Origin: Actinomycetes bacterium | Lineage (GTDB): Bacteria > Actinomycetota > Thermoleophilia > BMS3ABIN01 | Assembly (NCBI GenBank): GCA_021790115.1 | Contig: JAJYIM010000001.1 | Span: 23,543 to 87,542, forward strand | Direction: 5' to 3' | Length of the DNA: 64,000 nucleotides | Shown: one piece after another, positions 4,353 to 63,620 of the stretch | How positions within the stretch are numbered: position 1 is the stretch's first letter | Layout of the letters: every line of letters starts with the position of its first letter | Notes under the pieces: model-generated | What the model saw: the letters and a program-made list of their open reading frames with translations, nothing else | Told to the model about the DNA's origin: nothing | Databases searched by the model: none | Program-made: the position numbers and the translations under genes

Positions 4353-4440
4353 TTCCGGGCGGCGCCTGGATCAATCTCAAAAGGAATATTCTCTGCGGCC
4401 GCCTGCAGAGGCTTTGAGAGGAACCTGCCTATTTTTCAAA

Positions 4441-7584: not shown

Positions 7585-7689
7585 GCCGCAAAACCTCCTC
7601 GAAATTACATAATCATCCTATCAAAAAACTGACAGCAGATGGATGCTTCCGGTTTCCGGTTTCAAAAAAATGGAGTGATTTTTTCATTT

Positions 7690-7760
7690 ATCAAGTTAAT
7701 TTTTGGTTTTTGGTTTTTATCCAGCATCCAGAATCCAGCATCCACCATCCGCTTTTACGG
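7690..7760. repeat. heptamer-repeat intergenic element (family 1) copy
   Basis: GGTTTTTGGTTTTTATCCAGCATCCAGAATCCAGCATCCACCATCCGCTTTT in the divergent pdxS / IMPDH-like intergenic region. Reverse complement gives (GGATGNT)n-GGATAAAAACCAAAAACC. Confidence 0.55.
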
Positions 7761-9046: not shown

Positions 9047-9080
9047 CGGGTGCTGGATTCTGGATGCTGGATTAAACCAA
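9047..9080. repeat. heptamer-repeat intergenic element (family 1) copy
   Basis: Follows the plus-strand stop directly: GCGGGTGCTGGATTCTGGATGCTGGATTAAACCAAAACC. Confidence 0.55.
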
Positions 9081-9924: not shown

Positions 9925-9996
9925 TAAAAACCTATCTCAAAAGCATATTCTGCTGCGGCCGGCCTCGCTGCGAACAGCCTTTTGAGATAGATTCTA
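9925..9996. repeat. TIR hairpin element (family 2, MITE-like), copy A, inverted orientation
   Basis: CCTATCTCAAAAGCATATTCTGCTGCGGCCGGCCTCGCTGCGAACAGCCTTTTGAGATAGATTCTA. The termini CTATCTCAAAAG and CTTTTGAGATAG pair perfectly. The reverse complement matches copies at 42876 and 22997. Confidence 0.65.
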
Positions 9997-10067
9997 AAAA
10001 CAAGGCAGCGGCAAATTCTTTATTAAATTAGTCGGTGCACTGCTAAAACCATCTTAGCTTTTTTCCA

Positions 10068-10160
10068 GCAGCGCCACAAAACCCCAAAACCGGATGATGG
10101 ATATTGGGTTGGTTTTGGGTTATCCAATGTCCAAAATCCAGCATCCAGCATCCGCTTTTC
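10068..10160. repeat. heptamer-repeat intergenic element (family 1) copy
   Basis: The minus strand, directly after the stop of the ASKHA gene, reads TAG-AAAAGCGGATGCTGGATGCTGGATTTTGGACATTGGATAACCCAAAACCAACCC... Confidence 0.55.
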
Positions 10161-11407: not shown

Positions 11408-11477
11408 GAAAACCGGGAAAACGTGGGGAAAAACATCCGCAAAAAACCGGGCCGGCCGGCACACCCTGCGCCTTGTC

Positions 11478-11499
11478 CCAATATACATATTGGGACAGG
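11478..11499. promoter_or_regulatory. perfect 10-bp inverted repeat GTCCCAATAT-AC-ATATTGGGAC (candidate operator)
   Basis: Seen directly in the 415-nt divergent intergenic region between the ASKHA gene (start 11407) and the B12-rSAM gene (start 11822). Confidence 0.4.
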
Positions 11500-11821
11500 C
11501 TCTTAGCGTAGCAGAAATGTGGCAGGCAAACAATCGGGACCGGAGCGCCGGTTTTTGTGGCTGCCGGCGCCCGGAAAAACCGGGCGCTGCCTGACAGCGT
11601 GGAAACAATTACAGCCCTTTGCTACACTTAAATTGAAAAGCGGTGGGAATTTGGTGTGGGGAACTGCAACGTCTCTGGAGGAGCTTTCACTTCCTCTTGC
11701 TTCACTCCTGCGGCATGCTAAGAGCCTGTCCCAGAAAGCTGTTCGTATCGAGGCCGGCCGCAGCAGAATAAGCTTACCGGGATAAGCTCCATGCCCGCAT
11801 CCTGATGAGGAGAAGGCCAGT

Positions 11822-14339: not shown

Positions 14340-14435
14340 CGGTTTCGGGTTGCGGGTTTCCCTGTTAACTAATACTCAGCCCGGTTCAAAACCTAAACCT
14401 GGTGTGTGAAAACCCGAAACCCGCAACCCGCAACT
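14340..14435. repeat. heptamer-repeat hairpin (GGTTTCG GGTTGCG GGTTTCC ... AAACCCG AAACCCG CAACCCG)
   Basis: Tandem 7-nt units, with an inverted copy 45 nt downstream, between the GT2 stop and the rSAM start. Confidence 0.5.
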
Positions 14436-17221: not shown

Positions 17222-17232
17222 CGCCCTGTTGC

Positions 17233-17251
17233 ACAGGCTAAAAGCCTGTGC
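17233..17251. terminator. terminator-like hairpin CACAGGCT-AAAA-GCCTGTG, part of a 27-nt motif shared with 36421-36447
   Basis: Perfect 8-bp stem between convergent gene ends (17221 and 17274). The identical 27-mer TGCACAGGCTAAAAGCCTGTGCCTACC recurs at 36421. Confidence 0.55.
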
Positions 17252-17273
17252 CTACCAGCCTGTGCCTACCGCA

Positions 17274-18974: not shown

Positions 18975-19025
18975 TGGTCTGGAATCTGTCTCAAAGGGTC
19001 GTTCGCAGCGAGGCTAGACGAAAGA
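18975..19025. repeat. TIR hairpin element (family 2), degenerate partial copy D
   Basis: CTGGAATCTGTCTCAAAGGGTCGTTCGCAGCGAGGC matches the internal core AAAAGGCTGTTCGCAGCGAGGCC of copies A-C. Confidence 0.4.
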
Positions 19026-19044
19026 GCCATGGACAAGGACGCAG

Positions 19045-19683
19045 TCAAGCGCCGCCCATCAGCTCGCGGCAGGCCGCCAGGGTGCTCTTGACGTCACCGG
19101 CAAAAGCGTCCACGCCCACCTCCCTGGCCAACTCCGGCGAGTGGGCGGCGCCACCGGAGACAACCTTGACCCTGCCGCGCAGGCCGGCCTCACCCAGGGC
19201 GGAAATGACATCCATCAGGGCCTGTTTTGTTGATGTGGTAAAAGCGGAAAGCAGCAGCAGGTCGGCGTTAACCTCCTTGACCTTGGCGACAAACTTTGCT
19301 GCAGAGACATTTACGCCCAGGTCATAAACCCTGTATCCGGCCGCCCTGAGTGCAGAGACAATGATATTTTTACCAATGTTGTGAACATCGCCCCTGACAG
19401 TTCCCATCACCACGACGCCGGCGTGATCGGGCCGCCGCTCGAACAGGTAAGGGTCCAGCACCTGCAGCGCCGCCTCCACTGCCGCGGCTGAGCGCAGCAT
19501 CTCCGGGATGAAATACTCGCCTGTCTCATACTTGGCGCCGACCTCTTCCATCGCTGATGACAAAGCGGCAAGAATCCGGCCGGCGGAATATGTATCCCGG
19601 GCCGCAACTTCGCCGGCAAGGCCGGCGGCCGCCTCAGCGTCGCCGGCTACCAGCGCCTGCTTAAATCTGTCCAGAAGTCCCAA
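19045..19683 (-). CDS. corrinoid (cobalamin-binding) protein, MtbC/MtaC-like
   Basis: N-terminal B12-binding_2 helical cap and a Rossmann B12 domain with the DxHxxG motif (GDVHNIGKNI) plus GVVVMGTV. 212 aa. Confidence 0.8.
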   Translation of the reverse strand: MGLLDRFKQALVAGDAEAAAGLAGEVAARDTYSAGRILAALSSAMEEVGAKYETGEYFIPEMLRSAAAVEAALQVLDPYLFERRPDHAGVVVMGTVRGDVHNIGKNIIVSALRAAGYRVYDLGVNVSAAKFVAKVKEVNADLLLLSAFTTSTKQALMDVISALGEAGLRGRVKVVSGGAAHSPELAREVGVDAFAGDVKSTLAACRELMGGA

Positions 19684-22897: not shown

Positions 22898-22996
22898 AAA
22901 ACCTCAGTTTCTTGTTTGTGGTTTCTGGTTTCTGGTTCACCCACAAAAAAATCAACTCGAAACTGGAAGCTCGAAACTCGAAACTAAGAGCCTGCT

Positions 22997-23067
22997 GGGA
23001 TAGATTCTTAGAATCTATCCCAAAAGGCTGTTCGCAGCAGAACAGGCGTGCTGAGATAGATTCTAAG
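22997..23067. repeat. TIR hairpin element (family 2), copy C
   Basis: GGGATAGATTCT|TAGAATCTATCCC is a perfect 12+12 palindrome, followed by AAAAGGCTGTTCGCAGCAGAACAGGCGTGCTGAGATAGATTCTAAG. Between nadD and proA. Confidence 0.65.
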
Positions 23068-26774: not shown

Positions 26775-26888
26775 AAACAGATTCTGGATTCTTGATGCTG
26801 AATGCTAGATAAAATATAACCAAAGTTCAGGACATTCAACCCGAAAGGTGATATCTACCATCTACCATCCGCCATCCACCATCCGCTC
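26775..26888. repeat. heptamer-repeat intergenic element (family 1 variant) between atpC and murA
   Basis: Minus strand after the atpC stop: TAA-GAGCGGATGGTGGATGGCGGATGGTAGATGGTAGAT.... The plus strand carries CTGGATTCTTGATGCTGAATGCT at the other end. Confidence 0.5.
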
Positions 26889-27338: not shown

Positions 27339-28916
<1,578 letters not shown>

Positions 28917-32617: not shown

Positions 32618-32940
<323 letters not shown>

Positions 32941-36134: not shown

Positions 36135-36299
36135 TTGCCTCTTTGCCTCAGAGCCTGCTGAGACAGGCCCTTATGGACTTTAATGCCCTAGGTTACCCAC
36201 CCCGCCTGCCATTTGCAAGCCGCCCGGCGGCCTGGGCCCGGCTTTTCCCGCATTTTGCCGGCTTTTTCTTCTTCGGGCGCCGCCGGGCTAATCCTTTGT

Positions 36300-36480
36300 A
36301 ATCTTCCCGGGAGATGGCAGGCTTCCTTTACGCGCATGCCCAGTAGATGGCAGGCTTGGTAGATGGCAGGCTTTTAGCCTGCCTTTGGGAGACTTCCTTT
36401 ACGCACAACACGCCCTCATCTGCACAGGCTAAAAGCCTGTGCCTACCGTCGTTTGAAGCGGGCTAAAGCCTGTGCCTGTG
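36300..36480. repeat. complex intergenic repeat block: 3x GATGGCAGGCTT, 2x CTTCCTTTACGC, hairpins GGCAGGCT-TTTA-GCCTGCC and CACAGGCT-AAAA-GCCTGTG
   Basis: Seen directly. Contains the same 27-mer as 17231-17257. Lies between the dCMP deaminase start and the end of the repeat-protein gene. Confidence 0.6.
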
Positions 36481-36481
36481 C

Positions 36482-38680
36482 CTAGTTTAGCACCGTCCCC
36501 AGCACCTCATTAAAGTAGCCGTTGTAAAGGACGCGCTGGGAAGCAATAACGTTGCCGCTGGCGCTTACCTCGACCGGGCCGCCCATCTTGCCGGAGAAGG
36601 TGGGAGTTGCGTTCTTTCCCGGGGCGATTGTGTAGGTGCCTATGGCAGTGCTGCCCAGCTTGATAGTTGCGGTAACTGCAAACGGGTTCGGGTTGGCGAT
36701 AAGCACCCAGTTTTGCATGCCTGGGCTTTGCTGGTCATACCAGGTCCAGTTGTAATCTGAGGTTAGCGCTGAGTAGCCGCCGTCAGTGGAGGCCGCCAGG
36801 CCCGGCACCTCTTCAAAGGAGGGGCCGAAGATCGAGCGCTGGGTGGCGATCACCTTGGCGCCCCCGTCGGTCCAGACTTCCACCGGGCCGCCCATCACGC
36901 CCGGGAAGGTGGGCGTGACATGCTGGCCGGGGCCGATCCGGTAGCTGCCGCGGAGAGCGCCGGCAATCTTGATATGGGCTGTTACCGCGCTTGCATTTGG
37001 ATTGGCGACAAGCACCCAGTCGGTGGCGCCGGCAGAGGCGTTGTCGTACCAGGTCCAGAGGTAATGGTCGGAAAGCTCCGCCGCCGGGATGCCGGGCACC
37101 TCGTTAAAGGCGGAGCCGTAATTGGAGAGGACCCGCTGGGAGGCAAGCACGTCCCCGCCGCTGGCGATAACCTCAACCGGGCCGCCCATCTTGCCGGAGA
37201 AGGTGGGAGTCACTTTTGCTCCCGGGGCGATGGGGCCGCTCCAGACAGGGACGCCGGCAATCTTGACCATGGCCGTTACCGGGCCCTGGGGATTGCCGTT
37301 ATGATCCTGGCCGGGGTTGGCCACAAGCACCCAGTTGGTCATCCCCGGGCTTTGCTGGTCGTACCAGGTCCAGTAGAAATGGCTGGAGAGCCGGCCCGCA
37401 TCGGTGCCGGGCACCTCTTCCATGGAGCTTCCCCCCTTGGGCCAGAGGCTGCGCTGGCTGAGGATGCCGCCGCCGGGCGCCCAGGTGACGGCTTTTACCG
37501 GGCCGTTCATGACCCCCGGAAAGACGGGAGTGATGGAGCGCCCCGGAGCGACAACGCCATTGTTATAGCCGGCGAGGCTCATGGCCCTGCCGCCAATGGA
37601 AAGCTGGGAGGTAACCAGGCTGCCCGGGGCCGAAGCCGGATTGGCGATCAGCACCCAGTTGCTGCCGCCGACATCATCGTACCAGGTCCAGTAAGAAGTG
37701 TTCGTGGTGGCAAGAATGGTGCCGCCATCACCCGCCACCCAGCCATGGCTCTGGTCCACGAAGCTGACGCCTTCAAATTTGTCAGCTGAGCCGCTCGTCT
37801 GGGGGCTCCAGGTAGCGCCGCCGTTTGTGGTGGCAAGAATGGTGCCGCCGCCCGTGCCGCCGCCCATCGCCACCCCGCCCCCAACTGCCCAGCCGTGGTT
37901 TTGGTCAACGAAGCTGACGCCTACAAGCGTATTGGCCGTGCCACTGGTCTGGGGACTCCAGGTAGCGCCGCCGTTTGTGGTGGCAAGAATGGCGCCGTTC
38001 GTACCCACGGCCCAGCCGTGGTTTTGGTCTGTAAAGCTAACGTCAGCAAGCCAGTTTGTCGTGCCGCTTGCCTGGGAGGTCCAGTGGGCGCCGCCGTCGG
38101 TAGTCGCAAGAATGGTGCCTCCGTAGCCCACCGCCCAGCCGTGGTTTTGGTCGAGGAAGAAGACGCGGTAAAGATCATTGGTCGTGCCGCTCGTCTGGAG
38201 GCTCCACCCGGCGCCGCCGTTGTTAGTTACAAGAATGGTGCCGTTAGCACCCACTGCCCAGCCGTGGTTTTGGTCCACGAAGCTGACGCCGTAAAGCAAA
38301 TTGGTGGTGCCGGTTGCCGCAGAGCTCCACCCGGCGCCGCCGTTGTTAGTTACAAGAATGGTGCCGTTAGCACCCACTGCCCAGCCGTGGTTTTGGTTCA
38401 GGAAAAAGACGCGGTAAAGATCATTGGTCGTGCCACTCGTCTGGGGGCTCCAGGTAGCGCCGCCGTTTGTGGTGGCAAGAATGGTGCCGCCGGGCCCCAC
38501 CGCCCAGCCGTGGTTCTGATCCACGAAGCTGATAGAATAAAGATCGCTCGTGGTGCCACTGGTCTGGGGACTCCAGGTAGCCGCCATTGACATTGAAGGA
38601 AAAACTGCCAGCGCCAGAAATGCTGCCGCCATTGCCGGTAGTAAAAACAACATCCGCGGCGTAAAGACTCTCTTCATCAC
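36482..38680 (-). CDS. secreted protein: Ycf48/BNR-like beta-propeller (7 repeats) fused to 4 copies of the ~100-aa WTWYD repeat
   Basis: Signal peptide MMKRVFTPRMLFLLPAMAAAFLALAVFPSMSMA. Seven repeats of the form ATWSPQTSGTTxDLYxVxFxDQNHGWAVGxxGTILxTxNGG (PSII stability/assembly factor-like propeller), then YWTWYD...NWVLIANP...FEEVPG repeats. The C-terminus ends NGYFNEVLGTVLN, identical to the 2222 protein. Confidence 0.7.
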   Translation of the reverse strand: MMKRVFTPRMLFLLPAMAAAFLALAVFPSMSMAATWSPQTSGTTSDLYSISFVDQNHGWAVGPGGTILATTNGGATWSPQTSGTTNDLYRVFFLNQNHGWAVGANGTILVTNNGGAGWSSAATGTTNLLYGVSFVDQNHGWAVGANGTILVTNNGGAGWSLQTSGTTNDLYRVFFLDQNHGWAVGYGGTILATTDGGAHWTSQASGTTNWLADVSFTDQNHGWAVGTNGAILATTNGGATWSPQTSGTANTLVGVSFVDQNHGWAVGGGVAMGGGTGGGTILATTNGGATWSPQTSGSADKFEGVSFVDQSHGWVAGDGGTILATTNTSYWTWYDDVGGSNWVLIANPASAPGSLVTSQLSIGGRAMSLAGYNNGVVAPGRSITPVFPGVMNGPVKAVTWAPGGGILSQRSLWPKGGSSMEEVPGTDAGRLSSHFYWTWYDQQSPGMTNWVLVANPGQDHNGNPQGPVTAMVKIAGVPVWSGPIAPGAKVTPTFSGKMGGPVEVIASGGDVLASQRVLSNYGSAFNEVPGIPAAELSDHYLWTWYDNASAGATDWVLVANPNASAVTAHIKIAGALRGSYRIGPGQHVTPTFPGVMGGPVEVWTDGGAKVIATQRSIFGPSFEEVPGLAASTDGGYSALTSDYNWTWYDQQSPGMQNWVLIANPNPFAVTATIKLGSTAIGTYTIAPGKNATPTFSGKMGGPVEVSASGNVIASQRVLYNGYFNEVLGTVLN

Positions 38681-38929: not shown

Positions 38930-40648
38930 CTAGGGCTTGGCGGGGTAGTAGTAAGTGGCACCGTTGCTATCCTGGCAATGGGCGTAAACAGAAGTGTGGA
39001 AAGACTGCACGCTTTGCGGCACATAGTACTGTATCATAAAGGCGTCGCCACCGGACGGCGGCGTATCGATATTGCCGAGCGCTTTTGGCAGCGCAGTCAA
39101 GGCCGTTACGCCGTTAGTGGCGTCAACCCGGTCAATCGATGCCGACAGCGCCTCTTCCTGCCCCTTGTTCATGATCCTGAAATCAACCGACAGCTTACGG
39201 CTGGCGTAGTCAGCCGTGCTGGCCCAGTAAGCGTTTGTCTCAAGCAATTGCATGTCGGGCATCGGCGCCGCCAGTTGGCCCGTGGCAAAGCGGGGCAAAC
39301 CCACAAGCTCGTTGAAACTGGTGCTCATGTACAGCACCCTCTGGCTCGCCAGCAGCACGCCGTTCTGGCTCATGACGTTCACGGGGCCACTCATTACACC
39401 CGGGAACTGGGGCGTTACCCGGCCGCCGCCGCTAATTGCCGTTGCATAAACCGGGCTCGCGGCCGCACCCATGTATACGTTTACTGCCGCGCCGCCCGAT
39501 GAGGGGTCGGGATTGGAAATGAGCTGCCAGTCTTTCATGCCGGGGCTCTGCATGTCGTACCAGCCAAAGTCCATTTCCGTGTCCATGCCGCCCGGCGGCG
39601 TCCCCTGCAACTCTTCAAACGAGTTCTTGTACAACATCCGCTGGCTGACAATCAGTTTCCCGCCGGCGTTGCATCCGGAGGTGCAGACCACCCGCACCGG
39701 CCCGTCCATCAGGCCCGCATAAGTCGGAGTGGCAATCCGGTGCGGGCCAAGCGAGTATGTTCCCCGCGGATTGGGATTGGAACCGATATAGACGCTGGCC
39801 TGCACTGGCGTATTGTTGGGATTGGCAACCAGGACCCAGTTTCCGGCGCTGAAATCCGAGGTCATATCGTACCAGTCGAAATAATAAACGCTGTCCAGAT
39901 GGCTTTCTGGGAAACCCATCGCTTCATTGAAGCTGTTTTTGTAAAGAACGCGCTGGGAGACAAGCAGCTTTTGGCCGCCGGAGCTGACGACATGGACCGG
40001 CCCTCCCATCAGGCCCGGGAACTCGGGGGTCACGAACTGCCCCGGCGCGATATTAAAAGAGCGGCTGGGGACCGTGCTGCTGCCAATGTAAACATTGACT
40101 GCCGCAGCCTGGCTGTCCTCGTTGGCGATCAGGATCCAGTTGCCATTCATGCTGTCCTGAGTGGTAAAGTCGTACCAAGTGAAATAATAGGAGGAGTCGA
40201 GGTTGTCCTGCATGATGGCCGGGACCTCGTTGAAATAGCCATTGTGGAGAACCCGCTGGGTGACAACCAGCGCCTGGCCGCCGGTAGAAATTACTTTAAC
40301 GGGGCCGCCCATTGTGTTGGGCCAGCTGATAACCTGGCGCCCCTGGGCGCCCACGGTGAATGTCTCCCGCGGAGCCGCCTGGTTGCCAAAAAATACCTGC
40401 ACATTGGCGGAGCTGTTTTCCAGATTGCCGATAACGATCCAGTCGCCCTGCATTCCGTCCACCGGCGTAGAGTCATACCAGGTGAAGTAATAAGTCTTGG
40501 GGGCCGGCGTGATCTGCACCGCGCCGGCGCTGGCGGCGGCAAGAGCTACCAGCAAAACTGAAAAAACTGTTAATAACAATAAATTTAAAGTCAGCGTCCG
40601 GGCTCTAACAAGTTTCTTCAAGACAGATACCTCCGTTTTTTTACACAC
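38930..40648 (-). CDS. secreted protein with 4-5 copies of the YYFTWYD...NWVLVANP...FNEV repeat plus a unique C-terminal domain
   Basis: Signal/TM VRARTLTLNLLLLTVFSVLLVALAAASAGA. Repeats such as YYFTWYDSTPVDGMQGDWIVIGN...MGGPVKVIS...VVTQRVLHNGYFNEVPA. Third paralog of the 2222 and 36482 proteins. Confidence 0.7.
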   Translation of the reverse strand: MCKKTEVSVLKKLVRARTLTLNLLLLTVFSVLLVALAAASAGAVQITPAPKTYYFTWYDSTPVDGMQGDWIVIGNLENSSANVQVFFGNQAAPRETFTVGAQGRQVISWPNTMGGPVKVISTGGQALVVTQRVLHNGYFNEVPAIMQDNLDSSYYFTWYDFTTQDSMNGNWILIANEDSQAAAVNVYIGSSTVPSRSFNIAPGQFVTPEFPGLMGGPVHVVSSGGQKLLVSQRVLYKNSFNEAMGFPESHLDSVYYFDWYDMTSDFSAGNWVLVANPNNTPVQASVYIGSNPNPRGTYSLGPHRIATPTYAGLMDGPVRVVCTSGCNAGGKLIVSQRMLYKNSFEELQGTPPGGMDTEMDFGWYDMQSPGMKDWQLISNPDPSSGGAAVNVYMGAAASPVYATAISGGGRVTPQFPGVMSGPVNVMSQNGVLLASQRVLYMSTSFNELVGLPRFATGQLAAPMPDMQLLETNAYWASTADYASRKLSVDFRIMNKGQEEALSASIDRVDATNGVTALTALPKALGNIDTPPSGGDAFMIQYYVPQSVQSFHTSVYAHCQDSNGATYYYPAKP

Positions 40649-42647: not shown

Positions 42648-42875
42648 CAAGCTTCCTCCTTGGGTTTTTCCTCCCGGCCGGAGCCGTCCACGGCCCCGGC
42701 AAGGGCGGGAATGTCTTTCTGAGCGGGACGTTCGACTTTCAGCCGCCGGGGATGAAACATTGCCAGTATATATTATTTTCATGCTGGAGGACTCCCGCTT
42801 CAGCCGGCGGCAGGCGCAGGCCTCCAGGCCTGTGCAGACGCGGATCTCCCCAATTTAGAGTCAGCGGCACAGCCC

Positions 42876-42966
42876 TAAGAATCTATCGCAAAAGGCTGTT
42901 CGCAGCGAGGCCTTTGCAGCCGGCCGCAGCAGAATATGCCTTGAGATAGATTCTAAACGACGCTTC
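42876..42966. repeat. TIR hairpin element (family 2), copy B (longest)
   Basis: TAAGAATCTATCGCAAAAGGCTGTTCGCAGCGAGGCCTTTGCAGCCGGCCGCAGCAGAATATGCCTTGAGATAGATTCTAAAC. The terminal inverted repeats are GAATCTATC...GATAGATTC. Confidence 0.65.
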
Positions 42967-43597
42967 CGATCAACGCCTCGATATCCCCGCGCACTACCGC
43001 GCCCTCTCTCAGAACCCGGGCCGGCTCCCCCTCCGCCAGCGGCCGCAGGTCCACAACTGTGGAGGAAGCACAACCATCGATCGGCCCACTGTCCAGCACG
43101 TATTCACAAGCCTGCTTGAGCTCCTCCGGAATCTCGTTGATGAAGCAGGGGTCAGCGCCGCCGGCCAGGTTGGCGCTGGTCAGCGCCAGCGGCGTGGGCA
43201 ACCGCTGAAATACCGCCGCCTCAGGCAAGGGCAGCACCCGCACGCCAATGCCCCCCTCGAAGGCGGCCGCGGCCCCCTGTTTCCCCGCCGCTGCGGCCGC
43301 CGGCAGGATCAGCGTCACCGCTCCCGGCAGCAGTTCCTCAACAGCATTTAGCACCGCTGCCGGCAGCCGGGTGTATGCATGCACCAGCCGGATGACATCA
43401 TCAAACACCAGCGCCACCGGTTTGCCCGGCGCCCTGCCTTTGGCGGCAAACAGCCGCTGAAGCGCCTCCGGCTCCGGCTTGCAGGCGACGCCATAGACCG
43501 TATCGGCAGGCAGCGCAATCAGCCGGCCGCGCTCCAGCGCCGCGGCCGCGTCCGCCCAGTCGGAGCGGGTCATGGATTTAAGAAGTAGAAGTTTCAC
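42953..43597 (-). CDS. tsaC: L-threonylcarbamoyladenylate synthase, TsaC/YrdC family
   Basis: ...ALPADTVYGVACKPEPEALQRLFAAKGRAPGKPVALVFDD... is the Sua5/YciO/YrdC/YwlC fold. 214 aa, with no Sua5 C-terminal domain. Confidence 0.78.
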   Translation of the reverse strand: MKLLLLKSMTRSDWADAAAALERGRLIALPADTVYGVACKPEPEALQRLFAAKGRAPGKPVALVFDDVIRLVHAYTRLPAAVLNAVEELLPGAVTLILPAAAAAGKQGAAAAFEGGIGVRVLPLPEAAVFQRLPTPLALTSANLAGGADPCFINEIPEELKQACEYVLDSGPIDGCASSTVVDLRPLAEGEPARVLREGAVVRGDIEALIGSVV

Positions 43598-43694
43598 GTT
43601 CCGGGTTTCACGTTCCGGGTTCCGAGTGAAATTATAACGATTATTGACTATTTGTCAGGTTGCCTCTATGAGTTTGGAGTTAACCAGCATCCAG

Positions 43695-45699: not shown

Positions 45700-45738
45700 G
45701 GATTCTGGGTTCTGGGTTCTGGGTTCTGGGTTCTGGAT
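45700..45738. repeat. perfect tandem heptamer (GGTTCTG)5 / (CCAGAAC)5
   Basis: GGATTCTGGGTTCTGGGTTCTGGGTTCTGGGTTCTGGATAA, seen directly in the 100-nt spacer. Confidence 0.7.
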
Positions 45739-48789: not shown

Positions 48790-48850
48790 ATTTTTGGTTT
48801 TCGATGGGTTTATCCACCATCCACGATCTACCATTGTCTGCTTCATGCCA
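48790..48850. repeat. heptamer-repeat intergenic element (family 1) copy
   Basis: Minus strand after the DUF1385 stop: TGA-TGGCATGAAGCAGACAATGGTAGATCGTGGATGGTGGATAAACCCATCGAAAACCAAAAATG. Confidence 0.5.
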
Positions 48851-51653: not shown

Positions 51654-51731
51654 GGGCGATTAGCTCAGCTGGTTAGAGTGCTGCCCTCACATGGCAGAGG
51701 TCACTGGTTCGAGTCCAGTATCGCCCACCAA
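51654..51731 (+). tRNA. tRNA-Val (anticodon CAC), CCA encoded
   Basis: Manual cloverleaf: GGGCGAT/ATCGCCC acceptor, GCTC-AGCTGGTTA-GAGT D arm, CTGCC-CTCACAT-GGCAG anticodon arm, TTCGAGT T-loop, then ACCA. Confidence 0.88.
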
Positions 51732-51788
51732 ACTCGTCTTATTGGAACTTTTCGAGAGTAGTGGAGTTACCTCGTTTCTGTTGACACT

Positions 51789-52148
51789 TTAGTATTGCCC
51801 AACAGCTTCTACCGGAGCTTCCTCGAGCATTCTTTCATACTCTGCCGGACTCCGGTGTCCCAATGCAGAATGCCGCCTCAGTGGATTGTGGAATCCTTCG
51901 ATATATCTGAACACCGCCAGCCTGGCTTCATCCTTGGTTTTGAAGCGCCTGCGGTGGATGAGTCCGGTCTTGATCGTCCCCATCATCGACTCAGCGGCGG
52001 CGTTGTCACAAGCAACTCCTCGGCTTCCCCTCGAGGCCATGATGCCTGAGCCCTGAAGCGTTTTGCCAAAGACAAGGCTGCGGTATTGGCCGCCCCTGAC
52101 TGAGTGATGAACGTGGCCCGGCCCTGGCTTCCTCATTGTGGCCGCCAT
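51789..52148 (-). pseudogene. IS3-family transposase (OrfB integrase core) 5'-truncated remnant
   Basis: ...HSVRGGQYRSLVFGKTLQGSGIMASRGSRGVACDNAAAESMMGTIKTGLIHRRRFKTKDEARLAVFRYIEGFHNPLRRHSALGHRSPAEYE is the C-terminal half of an rve/DDE integrase. The N-terminal half and OrfA are absent. Confidence 0.7.
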
Positions 52149-52254
52149 TCCCAGGGCGGTTCAACCAGCTATGCGTATGGACAGTTCATCAAGAACGAAT
52201 TCGAGAACTCCGCTTGTGCATCTCAATCAGACTCTTTGCCGCTCAGCTCGAACT

Positions 52255-53403
52255 CTATAGATCATCAAGCAAGCCGGGCAATGCCAGCGCGTATATCTTT
52301 TTCTCAAGCTGAAAGGTCTCTTCACCGGCATGCACGACGTATAGCCGCTGCAGCTTTAAATCTTTAAGAGCGTGGCGCATTGAGGGCGTCACGCGGGGCG
52401 AGCTTGTCAATTTGACTTCATAGCCCATTTTCTTTCTGCCCCTGACTACCAGCAGATCCAGTTCCGCGCCGGCATGCGTCGCCCAGAAAAAACACTCCTC
52501 CCTGGCAAATCCCTGCCGGGAAACAAGCTGCTCGATAACGAACCCCTCCCATGAGGAGCCGATCTTCGGGTGGCGTTCCAGATCGTCGCGGTTTTTTATG
52601 CCAAGCAATGCGTGCAGCAGTCCGCTGTCGGCAATATAAATCTTGGGCGCCTTGACCTGGCGTTTCGATATGTTCTCATGCCAGGGCAGCAGTTGTCTTG
52701 CAACAAGCGCTGAGGACAGTAAATCCAGGTAGTTGCGAACGGTTGTATCGGCTGCCCCAAAAGACCGGCCGAACTCGGAGGCGTTCCATACCTGCCCGTG
52801 ATAATGAGCCAGCATGCTCCAGAACCGGTGCAAGGTAGTTGAGCGAATGGTAATCCCCAACTGCGGCAGGTCCCTTTCGAGAAAGGTGCGGATAAATCCG
52901 CGGCGCCACTCATCGCTTCCCGTATTTGATGAGGCAAGGTATGACCTTGGGAATCCGCCTCTCAGCCACAGCCGCCGGTAGTTCTCAATTCCGACCTCAT
53001 CCAGAGAGAATCCCTTGAGTTCGTGATAAACAATGCGGCCCGCCAGCGATTCGGAGCTCTGGCGAAGAAGTTCGGGAGAAGCGCTGCCCAGCACCAAAAA
53101 GCGCGCCGATGCTCTCGGACTGTCCACAAGCACCCTGAGAACCGGGAAAAGTTCGGGAAGCCTTTGTATCTCATCAATGACCACGAGCCCCTTTAAACCT
53201 TTAAGGGCAAGCATCGGGTCGGCGAGTCGCGCCAGATCCTCCGGGTTCTCCAGGTCAAAATAATTGGCAACGCCGGGTGTTCGTTTTAGGATGGAACGCG
53301 CCAGCGTTGTTTTCCCCACCTGGCGGGCGCCGATGATTCTGACAACTCGGTGGCGTTTCAAGAGCGCAGTAAGCTTATTTAATTCGCGTTGTCTTGCTAT
53401 CAT
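52255..53403 (-). CDS. AAA ATPase with DUF4143 C-terminal domain
   Basis: VVRIIGARQVGKTTL (Walker A). ATPase PF13173 plus DUF4143 architecture. 382 aa. Confidence 0.8.
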   Translation of the reverse strand: MIARQRELNKLTALLKRHRVVRIIGARQVGKTTLARSILKRTPGVANYFDLENPEDLARLADPMLALKGLKGLVVIDEIQRLPELFPVLRVLVDSPRASARFLVLGSASPELLRQSSESLAGRIVYHELKGFSLDEVGIENYRRLWLRGGFPRSYLASSNTGSDEWRRGFIRTFLERDLPQLGITIRSTTLHRFWSMLAHYHGQVWNASEFGRSFGAADTTVRNYLDLLSSALVARQLLPWHENISKRQVKAPKIYIADSGLLHALLGIKNRDDLERHPKIGSSWEGFVIEQLVSRQGFAREECFFWATHAGAELDLLVVRGRKKMGYEVKLTSSPRVTPSMRHALKDLKLQRLYVVHAGEETFQLEKKIYALALPGLLDDL

Positions 53404-53786
53404 TTGGTCAAATATACATTGAAATCTCGGTTATTGTAACAGAAATATCAATGTTTGTGAATGTATCGACGTAAGCGGGACACGCATTGCTTGGGGCACG
53501 AAACAAGAACAGTGAGCTATACTCCATTCTGGTGTATGACACCATCCTGATCAAGCGGTTCACTTGCCGTAAGAGAAAAGGCCCTGGGCCCCGACCACCC
53601 CAATACGGCCCAAAGCCCAAACAACCTGGCGGGGCTGCTTTTAAGAGCAAGGGCGACTACGCCGGCGCCGAGCCCCTCGCCGCCGGGCGCTTGCCATTCT
53701 GGAAAAGAATTTGGGGGAGTTACATCCGGATACGAAAATTGTGAGGCATAAGCTCGAATCCCTAAGGGGCCGACCAAATCTCACAA

Positions 53787-54290
53787 TCAGATTTCATTAA
53801 AATTGCGCAATCCCCATCCGGGCGGCAACCCGGCGGCGTCGAGCGCAAACTTCTCCTCGCGCGGACCGACGAAGTCGATGATCACGCGGATCTCCGTGTA
53901 TTTCCTGATTGCCTGGCGCGCGAATACCAGCAGGCAGGCGAGCGGGCTCATGTTCATGCTCCATTCCTGCCGGGCCAGTCTTTCCATGGCGAAGACGAAC
54001 GCCTCCTGAACCATGTCCTCGGCGCCGGCGTCCTGCGGCTCCCGGGGGCAGTTATCCCTAACGTAACCGAGCAGGGCGTCATGGTATTTGGAGTAGCAGG
54101 ATTCAAACAGGAGCTGGCGCTCGTCAAAATCCAGCTCCTGTCCGCGGCGCAGCTTTGCCAGCGCGCTACGCAACTGATCATTCTTGATACCTGTGAGCGC
54201 TTGCCTCTTCATGCCCTGGATGTGACAATCCCTGAAACCGGGTATCTTCATAAACGTGAGCGGATCCGCTCCAGAATTCCTTTGACCCAT
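53787..54290 (-). CDS. sigma-70 region-2-like protein lacking region 4 (likely truncated ECF sigma)
   Basis: ...YHDALLGYVRDNCPREPQDAGAEDMVQEAFVFAMERLARQEW...LLVFARQAIRKYTEIRV resembles ECF sigma region 2. Confidence 0.4.
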   Translation of the reverse strand: MGQRNSGADPLTFMKIPGFRDCHIQGMKRQALTGIKNDQLRSALAKLRRGQELDFDERQLLFESCYSKYHDALLGYVRDNCPREPQDAGAEDMVQEAFVFAMERLARQEWSMNMSPLACLLVFARQAIRKYTEIRVIIDFVGPREEKFALDAAGLPPGWGLRNFNEI

Positions 54291-54574
54291 TCTTCCTCAT
54301 TGACATAATTATGGTTTTTTGACGTTTGGTACGCTTCCTCGGCCAAGGGCAGCGCTTCCCGTGGCCGGTCCAGCTCATCATTCAGCAATATCGCTTGATT
54401 TGTCAAGGAATAGACCAGGGATTGCGGTATCCCCGGCTCGCGGCAGATGCGCTCCTGTTCCTTGTGGAGGGCCATGGCCCCGTCCAGGTCGCCGCGGTCC
54501 TTGAGGATAAGCCCCTGGCTTCCCTGTTTTTCAATCTTTATTTTCCCCGCGACTGCGATTTCGATGATAAGCAT
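54248..54574 (-). CDS. TPR-repeat fragment
   Basis: ...ALPLAEEAYQTSKNHNYVNEEEW... is short and overlaps the sigma-like ORF. Probably a decayed gene. Confidence 0.3.
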   Translation of the reverse strand: MLIIEIAVAGKIKIEKQGSQGLILKDRGDLDGAMALHKEQERICREPGIPQSLVYSLTNQAILLNDELDRPREALPLAEEAYQTSKNHNYVNEEEWVKGILERIRSRL

Positions 54575-54714
54575 GTGGCCGACATGGCCTACGCGGCGAC
54601 GGCAGACCTGATTGCTGCTGCCCGCGCTGGTTCCGGCTGAAAAGCGGCCGCAGCCATGGGCGGTTCTGCCCAGGATATATTGAAATAATTTATCAGTTAT
54701 GATATTTTATTGCT

Positions 54715-55350
54715 ATGAAATGGGAATCATTACTGGAGATTGCCGGCGACGAACCTGTTTTTTCTTCCGGCCTGCTCCTTTCCGGAAATGAGTCTACCGG
54801 CCAAGTGCGGCTGCAGCTATCGCGCTGGGTACGGGCGGGCCGCCTGATTCAGCTCAGACGCGGCCTCTACGCCCTGGCGCCGGCCTGGCGCAAGATTGAG
54901 CCCCATCCCTTTCTGATCGCCAACCGGCTTCAGCGCGGCTCATACGTGAGTCTGCAATCAGCACTTGCATACCACGGCATCATACCGGAGCATGTGCCGG
55001 TCGCAACCAGCGTTGGGCCGGGCCGTCCCGGGACGCTGAGAAATCCTCTTGGCACTTATCAATTCAGGCACCTGGCTTATGGGATGCTCTTTGGCTATGC
55101 GCGGGTTGAAGTTGCCGCAACCCAATTTGTCTTTATCGCCTCGGCGGAGAAGGCGTTGCTGGACCTGGTATATCTGACGCCGGGCGCGGATTCACCGGAC
55201 TACCTTGGCGAGCTGCGCCTGCGAAATGACGGGGTAATGGATAGGCGTCTGCTCAAGGCGCTGGCGCAACGCAGCGGCAGGCCCAAACTTGTCCGGGCCG
55301 CCCGGACAGTCATGGCGCTCCTGGCGGGAAAGGAAGGAAAACCTTTATGA
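54715..55350 (+). CDS. abiEi: type IV toxin-antitoxin system AbiEi-family antitoxin/transcriptional regulator
   Basis: SGLLLSGNESTGQVRLQLSRWVRAGRLIQLRRGLYA is the AbiEi_4 N-terminal wHTH. 211 aa. Overlaps the next gene by 4 nt. Confidence 0.8.
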   Translation: MKWESLLEIAGDEPVFSSGLLLSGNESTGQVRLQLSRWVRAGRLIQLRRGLYALAPAWRKIEPHPFLIANRLQRGSYVSLQSALAYHGIIPEHVPVATSVGPGRPGTLRNPLGTYQFRHLAYGMLFGYARVEVAATQFVFIASAEKALLDLVYLTPGADSPDYLGELRLRNDGVMDRRLLKALAQRSGRPKLVRAARTVMALLAGKEGKPL

Positions 55351-56159
55351 AAGAGTATCTCCGGCAACTGATGCGACAGGAGGCTGGTGGCCTTATCCGC
55401 GAATATCTTGTGCGTGAATACCTGCAGGCGAGGATACTTGAGTCCCTGCAGGATCATGGGGTCTTCCTGCGGTGGGCCTTCCTTGGGGGAACAGCCCTGC
55501 GTTTCCTGTATTCCATCCCCCGTTTTTCAGAAGACCTTGATTTTTCGCTCATCACTGCCGGTGAGGAAACGCGTTTCGGGGAGGTGATGGCTAAAGTGAA
55601 ACGCACGCTGGAGCGCGAAGGTTACCAACTGGAGATCAAGGTCAGAGGCGGAAAGACGGTCGCCTCGGCAATGGTCGGGTTTACCGGGCTGCTTTATGAG
55701 CTTGGCCTCTCGCCACATGTGCACCAGAAACTTTCCGTCAGGATAGAGGTGGATACAAACCCGCCCGCGGTGGCGGTGCTTGAGACAACCATTGTTCGCC
55801 GCCACGTGACGCTCAACCTTTGCCATTACGACAGAGCCTCTCTGCTGGCGGGAAAGCTGCACGCAGTATTTGGCAGGCCCTGGACAAAAGGCCGTGATCT
55901 TTTCGATCTGGCCTGGTATCTCGCCGAACGGACCTGGCCGGGGCCGAATCTTGCGTTGCTCAATGCGGCCCTGTCACAAACAGGCTGGACCGGGCCGGCC
56001 ATGACGGCGGCCAACTGGCGCCGGCAGGCATGGAAGCGGCTAGCTTCCTTGGACTGGGAGCGGGCCCGTGAGGATGTTCGGCCGTTTCTGGAGCGAGAAC
56101 GCGACCTCGATCTTGTGAGCGCCGAAACGCTTGGCCAGTTGCTGCTTGAGGCAGGATGA
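55347..56159 (+). CDS. abiEii: AbiEii/AbiGii nucleotidyltransferase toxin (DUF1814)
   Basis: FLGGTALRFLYSIPRFSEDLDFS is the canonical DUF1814 NTase motif. 270 aa. Confidence 0.85.
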   Translation: MKEYLRQLMRQEAGGLIREYLVREYLQARILESLQDHGVFLRWAFLGGTALRFLYSIPRFSEDLDFSLITAGEETRFGEVMAKVKRTLEREGYQLEIKVRGGKTVASAMVGFTGLLYELGLSPHVHQKLSVRIEVDTNPPAVAVLETTIVRRHVTLNLCHYDRASLLAGKLHAVFGRPWTKGRDLFDLAWYLAERTWPGPNLALLNAALSQTGWTGPAMTAANWRRQAWKRLASLDWERAREDVRPFLERERDLDLVSAETLGQLLLEAG

Positions 56160-56268
56160 GAATTTTTCTTTCCGACGATGCAATTGGTTTCAACCCGGTT
56201 CAGTTGTACAAATATCTAACTTAGATTTTCTTTCTTTTCCTTTCCTGGTAATTAACTAAAAAACGACG

Positions 56269-56574
56269 TTGACAATTTTAACATTGTGCAGTAAGATTTG
56301 TAAGAATATCTTTACGTCCACGGGTTCGATTTTGGAAAAAGGCAACTGCAAAAAACAAAGGATCGTTTACGGCGTAGTCACCGTCAGCGCTAAGGGTCAA
56401 ATCGCCATCCCCGTGCCGCTCCGCACTGATCTTGACATAAAACAGGGCGACCAGCTGTTTCTGCTTAAACGGAAAGACGAAGCTGGTTTCGTGGCCGTCA
56501 AGCTGGAGGAGATCGACAGCCTTATGCATCAGATCCAGGCAGATGATGATTTTTTAAACAAGGGAAGGAAGTGA
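56269..56574 (+). CDS. AbrB/MazE/SpoVT family DNA-binding protein
   Basis: VTVSAKGQIAIPVPLRTDLDIKQGDQLFLL is a swapped-hairpin AbrB domain. The real start may be TTG at ~56332. Confidence 0.6.
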   Translation: MTILTLCSKICKNIFTSTGSILEKGNCKKQRIVYGVVTVSAKGQIAIPVPLRTDLDIKQGDQLFLLKRKDEAGFVAVKLEEIDSLMHQIQADDDFLNKGRK

Positions 56575-56617
56575 ACCAATAAGCAAAATTAACAGAGAGT
56601 GGCATCTGGCAAACATA

Positions 56618-57256
56618 ATGCCAAAGAATCCCTCCCATGAGCAGCGGATGCAATGGCACGCCGAGCACCTTCGACATTGCCATTGCCATCCGGTTTCCCC
56701 AAAGCTGCAAAAAGAACTGGACGAATTTTTAAATGAACAAAATTCTGCAGCAACTTAACGGCGGCGATTTGAGGTCAGACGGCAAAGCCAATGAGGTCGC
56801 TACGCAGATAATTGAGAGGCCCGAACTGCTTGCTGACCTAATGGAAGGTTTTGATTCAGACAACGAAATGATCAGGATGAGAACCGCCCATGCCGTTGAG
56901 GTTATCTCCAGAAAAAATGGGCAGCTGCTGGAAAGTTCCAAGTCAAAGCTCATTGACCACGCAGGAAATGACCCCCTCCCCGAGACCAGATGGCACCTGG
57001 CCCAGATTTTCGGCAACCTGCCGCTCTCTGACAGGGAAACAGAGACTGTGCTACCGATACTTTACGGCTATCTGAAGGACGGCACGATTTTGGTCAGATC
57101 CTGAACTATTGTGGGACTGGCAAATATCGCCAATCAAAATGCTCGCTTTAGACAGGAAATCCGGCAAAAAATAGCTGAACATGAAGATGACAAAAGCCCG
57201 GCGGTCAGAAACAGGGTGCGGCAGGCTTTGTCCGATCTTAAGTCCAGCGGGTCCTG
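56618..57256 (+). pseudogene. DNA alkylation repair enzyme-like (HEAT-repeat) gene broken into three pieces (frameshift near 56740 and in-frame TGA at 57102)
   Basis: Piece 1, 56618-56758: MPKNPSHEQRMQWHAEHLRHCHCH...LDEFLNEQNSAAT. Piece 2, 56733-57104: MNKILQQLNGG...KDGTILVRS. TGA follows, and the same frame continues: TIVGLANIANQNARFRQEIRQKIAEHEDDKSPAVRNRVRQALSDLKSSGS. Confidence 0.45.
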
Positions 57257-57326
57257 AGCCATAATATTGACCAAAAGATATTAAAGTGTTATTTAGTTAA
57301 AGCAACATTAAGAAAGGAGGTAAAAA

Positions 57327-57464
57327 ATGGCAACATGCAAAGAGTGCAAACATTACCAGCCGGTTGACGAGAGCCAGGGTGACTGTTTTGGTCATCAGGT
57401 GCCGGCGGACCGGGACGTGGGCCAGTGCCCCGCAAGTGCCTTTGAGCCTAAAGAGAGGCCTTAG
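57327..57464 (+). CDS. small Cys-rich peptide (45 aa), CxxC...C...C
   Basis: AAGGAGG lies 8 nt before ATG 57327. MATCKECKHYQPVDESQGDCFGHQVPADRDVGQCPASAFEPKERP. Too short for the ORF track. Confidence 0.45.
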   Translation: MATCKECKHYQPVDESQGDCFGHQVPADRDVGQCPASAFEPKERP

Positions 57465-57484
57465 TTATAATGACCAAAATATAA

Positions 57485-58528
57485 ATGAAGCAAGTTTTCA
57501 AGTCATTTGACAACTGCCCCGCCCTGGACGGATACCATTGCCAGACGAATTCACTGGCCAAGATATTTCATCACGCCGGTCATCCCTTATCAGAGGACAT
57601 GATTCTGGGCCTTGGAGCCGGGATGGGCTTCATTTACTGGCAGATGAAAATTGGCGGGACAGATTCAGTCTTTATCGGCGGCCGGGGCAACACGAAGGAT
57701 TTCTTTGGTGACTTGGGCAAAAGGACGGGCGTAAAGATCGAAACGGTCTCGACCTCGAGCGCCAAAAAGGCAGAGGCAGCCCTGTTGGAGAAGCTGAAAA
57801 ATCAAGAGCCAGTCATGCTTTTTGGCGACATGGGCTTTTTGCCCTGGTTTGAGTTTCCGGTTGAATATCATTTTGGCGGCCACACCTTCGTTGTCTGCGG
57901 TTATGACGGCAAGGACACTGCCTTGGCATCCGATATGGACCAAGCGGCGGCGGGGCTAAAGCAGGGATTCTATTATCCTGTCACCTTGGAACAACTTGCT
58001 AAAGCGCGGGGTTCAACCTTCAAGCCGTTTCCGCCCAAAAACGTGATGCTGGAGTTTGATTTCAGAAGCTTCCATAAGCCGCGCCCGGCAGACATCATTT
58101 CTGCCATAATGCAAACGGCAGAGTCTCAGCTCAACCCTCCCATAAAGAACATTGGCGTCAAGGGGCTCAGGCATACGGCCAAAATGATCGCCAAGTGGCC
58201 CGATTTGTTTGATGATCATACTCTGAGAATGAACCTCTTCCTGCTGTATATATTCTTTGAGATCGGCGGCACCGGCGGCGGCTGTTTCCGCTACATGTAC
58301 GCCAGATTCTTAAAAGAGGCGCAGCGGATAACCGGGAACAAAGAGCTGGGCGAGGCCGCGAAAATATTCTCGGAGTCAGGCAGGAAATTTACCGAAATCG
58401 GGCTGATGTTCAAGGACGCCGAGACCATCAGCGATCCCGCAAAAAAGATACTGGAAGCTTCGCAAGGATTTTCTCTGGTTGCTGACCTGGAAGAGCGAGC
58501 ATATACTTGTCTATTAGAGACTGTTTGA
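57485..58528 (+). CDS. BtrH N-terminal domain (papain/C39-like fold) + DUF4872 protein
   Basis: 347 aa. N-terminal FDNCPALDGYHCQTNSLAKIF... is typical of the BtrH_N family (butirosin acyltransferase-like cysteine hydrolase fold). Confidence 0.65.
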   Translation: MKQVFKSFDNCPALDGYHCQTNSLAKIFHHAGHPLSEDMILGLGAGMGFIYWQMKIGGTDSVFIGGRGNTKDFFGDLGKRTGVKIETVSTSSAKKAEAALLEKLKNQEPVMLFGDMGFLPWFEFPVEYHFGGHTFVVCGYDGKDTALASDMDQAAAGLKQGFYYPVTLEQLAKARGSTFKPFPPKNVMLEFDFRSFHKPRPADIISAIMQTAESQLNPPIKNIGVKGLRHTAKMIAKWPDLFDDHTLRMNLFLLYIFFEIGGTGGGCFRYMYARFLKEAQRITGNKELGEAAKIFSESGRKFTEIGLMFKDAETISDPAKKILEASQGFSLVADLEERAYTCLLETV

Positions 58529-58549
58529 CATAAACACAGGAGCGCTACA

Positions 58550-58687
58550 ATGGTCACTCCCCTGGACCGGTGCGTGCTTTATGTATTTCGCTGCGCCAAT
58601 TATTATGCCGCACACAAGAGGCACGACCCGGAGTTGCTTAAATGGTGGAACTGGAAAGACGAGAAGATGCAAAACGATAAGGACTGA
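58550..58687 (+). CDS. small ORF (45 aa), hypothetical
   Basis: AGGAG lies 7 nt before the ATG. MVTPLDRCVLYVFRCANYYAAHKRHDPELLKWWNWKDEKMQNDKD. Confidence 0.3.
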   Translation: MVTPLDRCVLYVFRCANYYAAHKRHDPELLKWWNWKDEKMQNDKD

Positions 58688-59436
58688 CGCCGTCATCGGC
58701 AGCACCAACAAAAATGCCGCTAAGCGTGGGTGATTTTTATGGTCCCTTTCAACTGATCGAGGCTGTCGAGGGGAAGAAATACTGATTCAGGTTAAAAAAA
58801 CTTCGATTGTTTGATCTGGAGGCCGGCTACCGGTTAGAGCAAAATGGAGAAGATACTCTCCTGAGTTTACTGCTCATATCCTCCAATCCCAACCTAATTC
58901 AGCGCTGCTATTGGCGGCTGGTAAAACCAATTCACAGCGTGTTGGCAGCAAAAACCCTTAAAACAATCAAAGCCGAAGTTGAAAGCTCCATCAACGTTAC
59001 ACATTCCTCGTAAATCTTTTCAACCTCATCATCAATAACGGCGACTTCCACATGCTAGGCGGATTGACCCCGAGAAAGTCAGATGCCGGCTCGATATGCT
59101 GGTTGCTGCCATTGGGAAGCCCCGAGGAGCAGCCCCGAGCCAGGAAGCTGGCCGCGAGACAGCGCATCTTAGAATCTGTCAATGATTCGCCAGGGGCAGG
59201 AGTAATCCCGCCCTTTCTCTGACCGTATCCTTGCTTGCCCGGGTTCTGGGCGCACTTTTTCCTCTGGGGCAAGTGATGACAAATGTAACAGAATAGCAAT
59301 ATTGCGTCAGTCAAATCAAGGCTGTTCTTGAAGCCGGTGAAGGATAAGTGTTGCGCGAAAGCCGGGCGTTAAGTGGTAGAATCACGGTCGTGAGAAGCCC
59401 TGAGACATTGATCCAAAAAACTGACAAGGGGGCGGC

Positions 59437-63409: not shown

Positions 63410-63620
63410 GCCAATGCCCTTGCCAGCACAAGGGGGTTCTGGCTGCCCTATTTAATCCTTCTCCTTTTTCCAAAAAGCCATCATTTGCCCAGACCAAAAG
63501 CCTGCGCCTGCCGACTTGTTTTTCTCTGTTTCGGTTCTTTCAGGAGGCGGCGCGTTTACGCCTTGCCGGCAAGGGTAAGATTTCGCTGGCACAAAAAAAC
63601 TGATCCGGAGGGCAACCATC

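Follow-up and report, generated by a model that had tools for sequence, protein, structure and literature searches.

The short hairpin repeat scattered through the window (the whole 64,000-nucleotide stretch of DNA that we analysed, positions 23557-87556 of the 118,695-bp metagenome contig k141_1216499, ENA ERZ27233565) is very probably a family of MITEs, each copy being the two termini of an IS5-family insertion sequence (of the IS427-like type, ~950 bp, with a -1 frameshift linking two overlapping ORFs) whose transposase gene has been deleted. The family is new but of a known kind, the IS5-derived MITE, and it shows all of the defining features that can be tested. As a MITE it is small and non-coding, has terminal inverted repeats (TIRs) and a target-site duplication, and occurs in dispersed copies that are present or absent at orthologous sites (between species). 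As an IS5 derivative it has ends that match an IS5-family IS, and a duplication whose length and sequence are those of the parent IS type. The preliminary description had left the choice between a non-autonomous mobile element and a structured regulatory RNA; the duplications, the empty sites, a reciprocal copy and the IS5-type ends bear out the mobile element, and the regulatory RNA was not upheld.

Copies of the element and their flanks

The part of the contig that could be read, about 80 kb (the window, 7.8 kb to its left and 8 kb to its right), holds eleven MITE copies or remnants, of which five are intact (A, B, C, I and J), one is diverged and full-length (E) and five are fragments; none lies in the right-hand 8 kb. 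Three full and two degenerate copies had been listed before, and all five are present at the places given for them. However, E is a diverged full copy, and the list overlooked F, G, Bx and H in the window as well as I and J to its left. Counting matches to parts of the element, and allowing up to one mismatch, TAGAATCTATC occurs seven times in the window where chance would give 0.31; the 22-nt left core is present twice (0.00 by chance) and the 18-nt right core three times (0.19 by chance). The more decayed copies came from scanning all 18-mers of the window with a nine-arm profile and then with IS tips.

All limits are stated without the 3-bp flanks. Copy C (42879-42953, plus strand) is an intact long-form MITE of 75 nt, with TAA at 42876-42878 and 42954-42956. 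Copy A (9928-9994, minus strand) is also intact and of the long form, 67 nt and inverted, with TAA at 9925-9927 and 9995-9997, and sits in the spacer of two minus-strand genes, a RACo-like one and lepB. Copy B (23011-23063, plus) is a short-form MITE of 53 nt and is abutted by a solo arm, Bx (22988-23007, minus; GAGCCTGCTGGGATAGATTC), which matches the tip of the insertion sequence ISAzo38 at 15 of 18 positions. Bx and B have the TTA at 23008-23010 in common, and the composite of the two has TAA on either side, at 22985-22987 and 23064-23066. The junction of Bx with B also accounts for a palindrome of 25 nt (12+1+12) at 22997-23021, which had been described as a perfect 24-nt palindrome and misplaced to the copy at 42876. 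To the left of the window lie copy I (L032, 45-97), which is intact, of the short form and 53 nt long, with flanks TAA/TAA, and copy J (L032, 6381-6564), which is intact and 184 nt long, with flanks TTA/TTA and a perfect 17-bp inverted repeat, GAGCCTATTTCGATAGG.

Copy E (11722-11789, plus) is diverged, full-length and representative of a sub-family, with arms GAGCCTGTCCCAG and GAGCTTATCCCGG, a left flank of TAA and a right flank of CAT; it lies between divergent genes, RACo-like (minus) and radical SAM (plus). Copy G (approximately 11472-11502, minus) is a mini-hairpin remnant (…CTTGTCCCAATATACATATTGGGACAGGCTC) followed by TTA. In copy D (18982-19043, plus) the left arm, 18982-19014, is well kept and the right half decayed, the copy ending just short of the stop codon of a corrinoid-protein gene (19045-19047). 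H (36151-36170, minus) is a solo arm (GAGCCTGCTGAGACAGGCCC) followed by TTA, a remnant of the Bx kind, and copy F (approximately 4368-4423, minus) is strongly diverged, a weak profile match (E 0.83) downstream of a 684-aa gene. The statement that all copies are intergenic and between same-strand genes needs qualifying, as E and G lie between divergent genes and the flanks of B and C overlap the stop codons of the upstream genes (proA and tsaC).

A direct 3-bp duplication is found at every single intact copy except B, reading TAA/TAA at A, C and I and TTA/TTA at J. B on its own has TTA/TAA flanks, and only the composite of Bx and B has direct TAA/TAA; in E and the fragments the duplication has been lost. 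Flanks that merely continued the inverted repeat would be TTA...TAA. Those observed are instead identical; were each flank TAA or TTA at random, identity in the four single intact copies and the composite would have a chance of 1 in 32. The target-site duplications that the preliminary description had left to be sought therefore exist, as direct 3-bp ones, at A, C, I and J.

Some other features of the window may be recorded here. The stretch 51654-59300 contains a tRNA gene (51654-51727), an rve-type integrase fragment (51789-52148, minus), an AAA_14/DUF4143 ATPase, an AbiEi/AbiEii toxin-antitoxin pair and small ORFs, and looks like a tRNA-adjacent integrated island; no MITE copy of the window lies inside it or to its right. 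Three large paralogous genes (2222-4276, plus; 36482-38680 and 38930-40648, minus) have internal repeats with a period of ~300 nt, those on opposite strands being 70-80% identical over stretches of ~40-150 nt, and a 123-nt tandem array occupies 37884-38581 in the region of these genes. The 684-aa product and its counterpart in L019 have no Pfam match on record.

Anatomy and folding

Intact copies are 53-184 nt long, consist almost entirely of two inverted arms (GAATCTATCNCAAAAGG... or GAGCCTRT...) and have no coding capacity. The left arm reads GAATCTATCNCAAAAGGCTGTTCGCAGC(GAGGCC) and the right arm (GGCCGCAGC)AGAATATGCNTTGAGATAGATTC; tips of the GAGCC type are those of E, G, H, Bx and J. In the short form (B and I) the stretch between the two GCAGC repeats is absent, while C has nine additional loop bases and J ~110 nt of unrelated middle sequence. 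The inverted repeats are perfect or near-perfect over 13-17 bp, with imperfect pairing out to ~22 bp.

Intact copies fold on either strand at approximately -30 to -35 kcal/mol, with z of -3.7 to -6.4 relative to shuffles: C at -32.5 and -34.8 kcal/mol on its two strands (z -3.7 and -4.9), A at -32.3 kcal/mol (z -4.6) and B at -30.1 kcal/mol (z -6.4). The folding of copy F is no better than that of its shuffles. Of the 22 pairs in the consensus structure, five are preserved by substitutions in both partners, and these all come from copy E (compensatory relative to A, B and C).

Two other kinds of repeat were seen in the spacers. A second hairpin repeat, CACAGGC-TAAAA-GCCTGTG, unrelated to the MITE, lies downstream of genes at 17222-17253, 36413-36477 (twice, in tandem) and 63478-63509, and also at 36343-36390. 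Many spacers contain arrays with a 7-nt period (1042-1128, 7647-7750, 9053-9073, 10136-10153, 14410-14434, 22907-22985, 26853-26886, 28848-28913, 32872-32934, 43591-43624, 45703-45736 and 48812-48834), many of them forming a pair of arms that are more or less complementary (for instance GATGGTG x4.4 immediately before ATCCAGC x4.6), and several with CGCTTTT after them. In relatives, arrays of this kind lie downstream of orthologous genes and are built from other heptamers (L017, 11285-11350; L021, 10650-10700). The arrays look like terminator hairpins made of heptad repeats, and we know of no described family like them.

Relationship to IS5-type insertion sequences

At the start of the contig of one syntenic relative, L024 (GCA_021790075.1), lies a truncated insertion sequence of which the 3' part is present. 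Its two overlapping ORFs, when joined at GGCAAAAAGGGG, give a protein that matches NCBIfam NF033580 transpos_IS5_3 at 192 bits (cut-off 110) and the Pfam domains DUF4096 and DDE_Tnp_1. Its end, ...GCAGCAGCCTACCGGGATAGGTCC followed by TAA (at greater length, ...CTTGCAGCAGCCTACCGGGATAGGTCC followed by TAA), is strikingly like copy E, GCAGCAGAATAAGCTTACCGGGATAAGCTC. A complete IS of the same 90% protein cluster, 949 bp long, is present in L027, with tips GGACGTATCCCGCTAGG and GGACCTATCCCGTTAG and TTA on both sides, and two further independent insertions with TTA/TTA were found, in L028/L029 and in L030. The full-length ISs of this cluster thus have tips of the form GGAC(G/C)TAT(C/A)CCG.TAGG and TTA/TTA at three independent sites. 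ISAzo38 of Aromatoleum aromaticum, the nearest annotated relative on a plasmid, begins with TAA and GAACCTATCCCGGTAGG and ends with GGAATAGGTTC and TAA (right end also as CCTACTGGAATAGGTTC followed by TAA). Like the MITE, these four full-length ISs have G(A/G)ANCTATCCC tips and a TTA/TAA duplication. Members of the IS427 group of IS5 are described as 830-950 bp long, with short duplications and with a programmed frameshift between two ORFs that overlap (PMC3281130).

In most MITE arms, 13-15 of the first 18 nt are those of the IS tips, ungapped and in register from the duplication, the best match being the right arm of E (15 of 18). A match of at least 13 of 18 is reached by 27 of the 128,000 18-mers of the window (2.1e-4), and ten of these 27 are MITE arms, each preceded by TAA or TTA, or by ATG in the case of the right arm of E. 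More broadly, the IS427-like elements (transpos_IS5_3; ISAzo38 and the 949-bp IS of L027, L028 and L030) have a common tip, G(A/G)ANCTATCCC..., inverted repeats of 17-20 bp and a 3-bp TAA/TTA duplication, and their likeness to the MITE extends into the sub-terminal GCAGC(A/C)G. They differ from it in being ~950 bp long with a transposase, whereas the MITE is 53-184 nt without one. Since the tips are only ~70-85% identical over 18 nt, the known ISs are relatives of the source and not the source itself, and the true parent of the MITE would be a different, unseen IS member.

No IS5-type transposase was found by tblastn in the window and the fetched loci of this genome (80 kb), nor did these 80 kb contain an IS with the exact tips of the MITE (GAATCTATC or GAGCCTAT). 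The earlier observation that the window has no transposase thus stands for the IS5 type, with the reservation that one rve-type ORF fragment of an unrelated family is present at 51789-52148. As far as these 80 kb go, the autonomous partner may lie unseen, may have been lost, or may be a diverged IS that works on more than one sub-family. TIRs of the IS5 type, GAGACCTTTGCAAAA among them, are documented as sources of bacterial MITEs (PMC4596501).

Empty sites in related genomes

Syntenic contigs of related uncultured bacteria were reached via homologues of ProA, the RACo-like protein and TsaC. The closest relative is L017 (GCA_027331575.1), with a ProA 87% identical, and L024, with 80%, is more distant; relatives at roughly 60-73% protein identity are MAGs named by NCBI 'Thermoleophilia bacterium' or 'Actinomycetota bacterium'. 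At the proA-nadD site the window reads ...AGAACTTA[83 nt]GTTTCGAG and L017 ...AGGACATAGTTCAAAG, so that after proA L017 has ...AGGACA TAG TTCAAAG... and the window ...AGAACT TA[G...83 nt...TTA]G TTTCGAG.... Taking out the 83-nt insert and one TTA leaves an alignment with L017 that is free of gaps. In L024 the proA-nadD spacer is only 9 nt long and the element is absent.

At the other sites the comparison gives absence only. C is absent behind the tsaC stop codon in L021 and L022, the RACo-lepB spacer of L019 aligns as far as the insertion point of A and has no element, and A, D, E, F and G are absent from the matching spacers of L017 and L019 (D from L017, F from L019). The relatives' spacers are too diverged for the junctions of A, C, D, E and F to be placed, and the empty site can therefore be read base for base only at proA-nadD. 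The preliminary description had reasoned that an ancestral regulatory element would be carried by the homologous spacers of relatives; there are relatives without the element at every copy site of the window, which favours mobility.

The reciprocal case was also seen. L017 has a degenerate MITE at 9926-9988 (GAGACTGTTGCAAAAGGCTGCTCG... / GAGACTGTTGCAAAAGGCTGCTCGTAGCGCGGCCGCTACGTTGAGATGTGTTTAAG), within the last codons of proB, where the site in the window is empty. ProB of the window ends in ...VLMEG (stop) and that of L024 in ...VLAEG (stop), followed by unrelated sequence, while the end of ProB in L017 is encoded by the MITE, ...VLETVAKGCS (stop), with the former GGAAGGATAA end stranded downstream. 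This copy has lost its duplication. In a second sample, L014 (SRR13170411), copies B and D are at the same places, and those copies would thus be fixed in the species. The mobility of the MITE is deduced from comparison between species; L014 showed no polymorphism within the species.

Three other differences between these loci were noted. Between tsaC and rpiB, L022 (10663-11205) and L023 have a low-molecular-weight phosphatase gene that is absent from L021 and from the window (42648-42952), where a non-coding spacer of ~300 nt stands instead, that of the window containing copy C. The contig of L021 (ERZ27233565 k141_1803185, 229,504 bp) shows a mirrored gene order at ~14740, tsaC-rpiB-glyA-562 aa / 562 aa-glyA-rpiB-tsaC, an apparent assembly artefact in the form of an inverted duplication. 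The proB-proA spacer of L024 (4377-4449) carries a different insert of ~60 nt, bracketed by GAAGGTTAG and GAAGGTTAAG and with an internal hairpin (ACTGACGGAAAGTCAG), and is possibly a further small mobile element, one that duplicates ~9 bp.

Alternative explanations

Another way to view the repeat is as a conserved structured RNA, that is, a cis-regulatory hairpin, attenuator, terminator or small RNA between the genes of operons. Such an RNA would be expected to sit, as the copies do, between co-transcribed genes, to form hairpins whose stability greatly exceeds that of shuffles (z -3.7 to -6.4), and to keep its pairing through two-sided changes, as E does in 5 of 22 pairs. However, a hairpin with co-varying arms is typical of any inverted-repeat element, and the copies follow no single orientation with respect to their neighbouring genes (sense for A and I, antisense for B, C, D and J), bear 3-bp duplications and are absent from the same spacers of relatives whose genes are 74-87% identical. 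An Rfam search, put forward earlier as a check, returned two tRNAs as the only hits in the window; the element reached E-values of 0.5-7 against miRNA-precursor, sRNA and snoRNA models, far below the gathering thresholds, and no family reached threshold for it at either gathering or permissive settings. Neither a U-tract terminator (a G+C-rich hairpin with a T-run) nor a promoter was found in or beside A, B and C on either strand. We consider this explanation extremely improbable.

Two other kinds of mobile repeat have to be weighed. The presence of TA in every flank would also fit a MITE of a TA-duplicating superfamily (IS630/Tc1-mariner, like Correia or RUP) in which the third base belongs to the element, and Correia-like elements are likewise intergenic and fold into hairpins. 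A 2-bp duplication, however, puts the arms of A and C off by one base, whereas a 3-bp duplication brings them into line from the very first position. In four complete IS5-type ISs whose tips match, the duplication is clearly one of 3 bp (TTA/TAA), and no DDE_3/IS630-type gene was seen, all of which makes an IS630-type origin very unlikely. It is scarcely credible that the repeat is a palindrome of the REP/BIME type moved by a RAYT (IS200/IS605-like Y1) transposase, even though it is short, extragenic, palindromic and densely distributed, some of its copies lying end to end (Bx and B). The arms match the ends of DDE-type IS5 elements and not those of IS200/IS605, and 3-bp direct flanks are, to our knowledge, not a feature of REPs. 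REPs are given as 20-40 nt long with a GTAG or CGTC head (PMC3733652), whereas the present elements, at 53-184 nt and with G(A/G)A tips (GAATC / GAGCC), have neither the head nor the size.

Proposed mechanism and insertion at stop codons

For a MITE derived from an IS5-type element, we propose that a DDE transposase of the IS5_3 type, acting in trans (from a gene elsewhere in the genome, or from one since lost), would bind the arms and cut at the tips, and that the element would be inserted at T-W-A with duplication of the three bases. This genome being G+C-rich, such TWA sites would be concentrated at stop codons and in spacers, and this concentration would explain both the intergenic copies and the three sites at stop codons. 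These are the TAG of proA (copy B), the TAG of tsaC (copy C) and the TAA of a peptidase C14 gene beside copy I. The tsaC stop codon (42955-42953, minus) consists of two bases of the duplication and the terminal G of copy C, and that of proA (23065-23063, minus) of two flank bases and the terminal G of copy B. As the element starts with G, insertion at T-TA-G would rebuild TAG and leave the gene intact; the C-terminus of ProA, ...GDGQIRT, is unchanged, and the three stop codons are preserved by the terminal G or by the duplication itself. This stop-preserving geometry of insertion is the sole mildly unusual point of the MITE.

Once inserted, a copy would be transcribed within the operon RNA as a hairpin of about -30 kcal/mol, with any effect on the host being a side-effect and not a designed function, and copies would later decay to solo arms and mini-hairpins. 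We regard it as doubtful that copies have been co-opted in the manner of Correia or REP, the T-TA-G/TAA preference giving placement at stop codons and the intercistronic hairpins setting mRNA stability or polarity (in tsaC-rpiB-glyA and proB-proA-nadD) in this uncultured anaerobic actinobacterial lineage.

Comparison with known elements

Tourist MITEs of eukaryotes (PIF-Harbinger) share the 3-bp TWA duplication and short TIRs, and their transposase is distantly related to that of IS5; the likeness would be one of analogy only, with no relationship in sequence. Correia elements (Neisseria), ERIC and REP are likewise small palindromic intergenic repeats that are co-transcribed as hairpins, but they differ from the MITE in their ends, their duplications (TA or none) and the enzymes that mobilise them. 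Closer in kind are ATR of Neisseria (with ISNme1-like ends) and BrickBuilt / MITE239 of Porphyromonas gingivalis, which are non-autonomous and intergenic, have IS5-type TIRs and number roughly 10-20 copies per genome (PMC4596501). The IS5-type MITE TIR GAGACCTTTGCAAAA from the same source resembles GAGACTGTTGCAAAA of the L017 copy. ATR and BrickBuilt differ from the present MITE in host phylum and internal sequence, and BrickBuilt has an internal minisatellite and irregular duplications (PMC4596501) where this MITE has a regular 3-bp TWA duplication.

Exact-match scans of 185,579 species genomes (18-mer core), JGI metagenomes (21-mer) and IMG/VR (TIR and core) gave chance singletons in coding sequence or nothing, so that the MITE family is not in those collections in recognisable form. 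Comparison of copy A by blastn with 72,556 plasmids gave partial matches at chance level, with a best E-value of 0.2.

Implications

The MITE family opens no long-standing question, and matters mainly for annotation and for the correct reading of these genomes, in which it inflates spacers, misleads gene callers and can rewrite the ends of proteins (as for ProB of L017). The call for the RACo-like gene in the window (10160-11488, minus), for instance, gives 442 aa, compared with 395-413 aa in most relatives, and runs through remnant G; it probably extends ~30-40 residues too far upstream, an annotation artefact caused by the MITE. Beyond this, the element serves as a marker of recent divergence among uncultured Actinomycetota populations that are close relatives and occur together in a single sample, and it points to present or past activity, in this lineage, of IS5-type elements that make TWA duplications.
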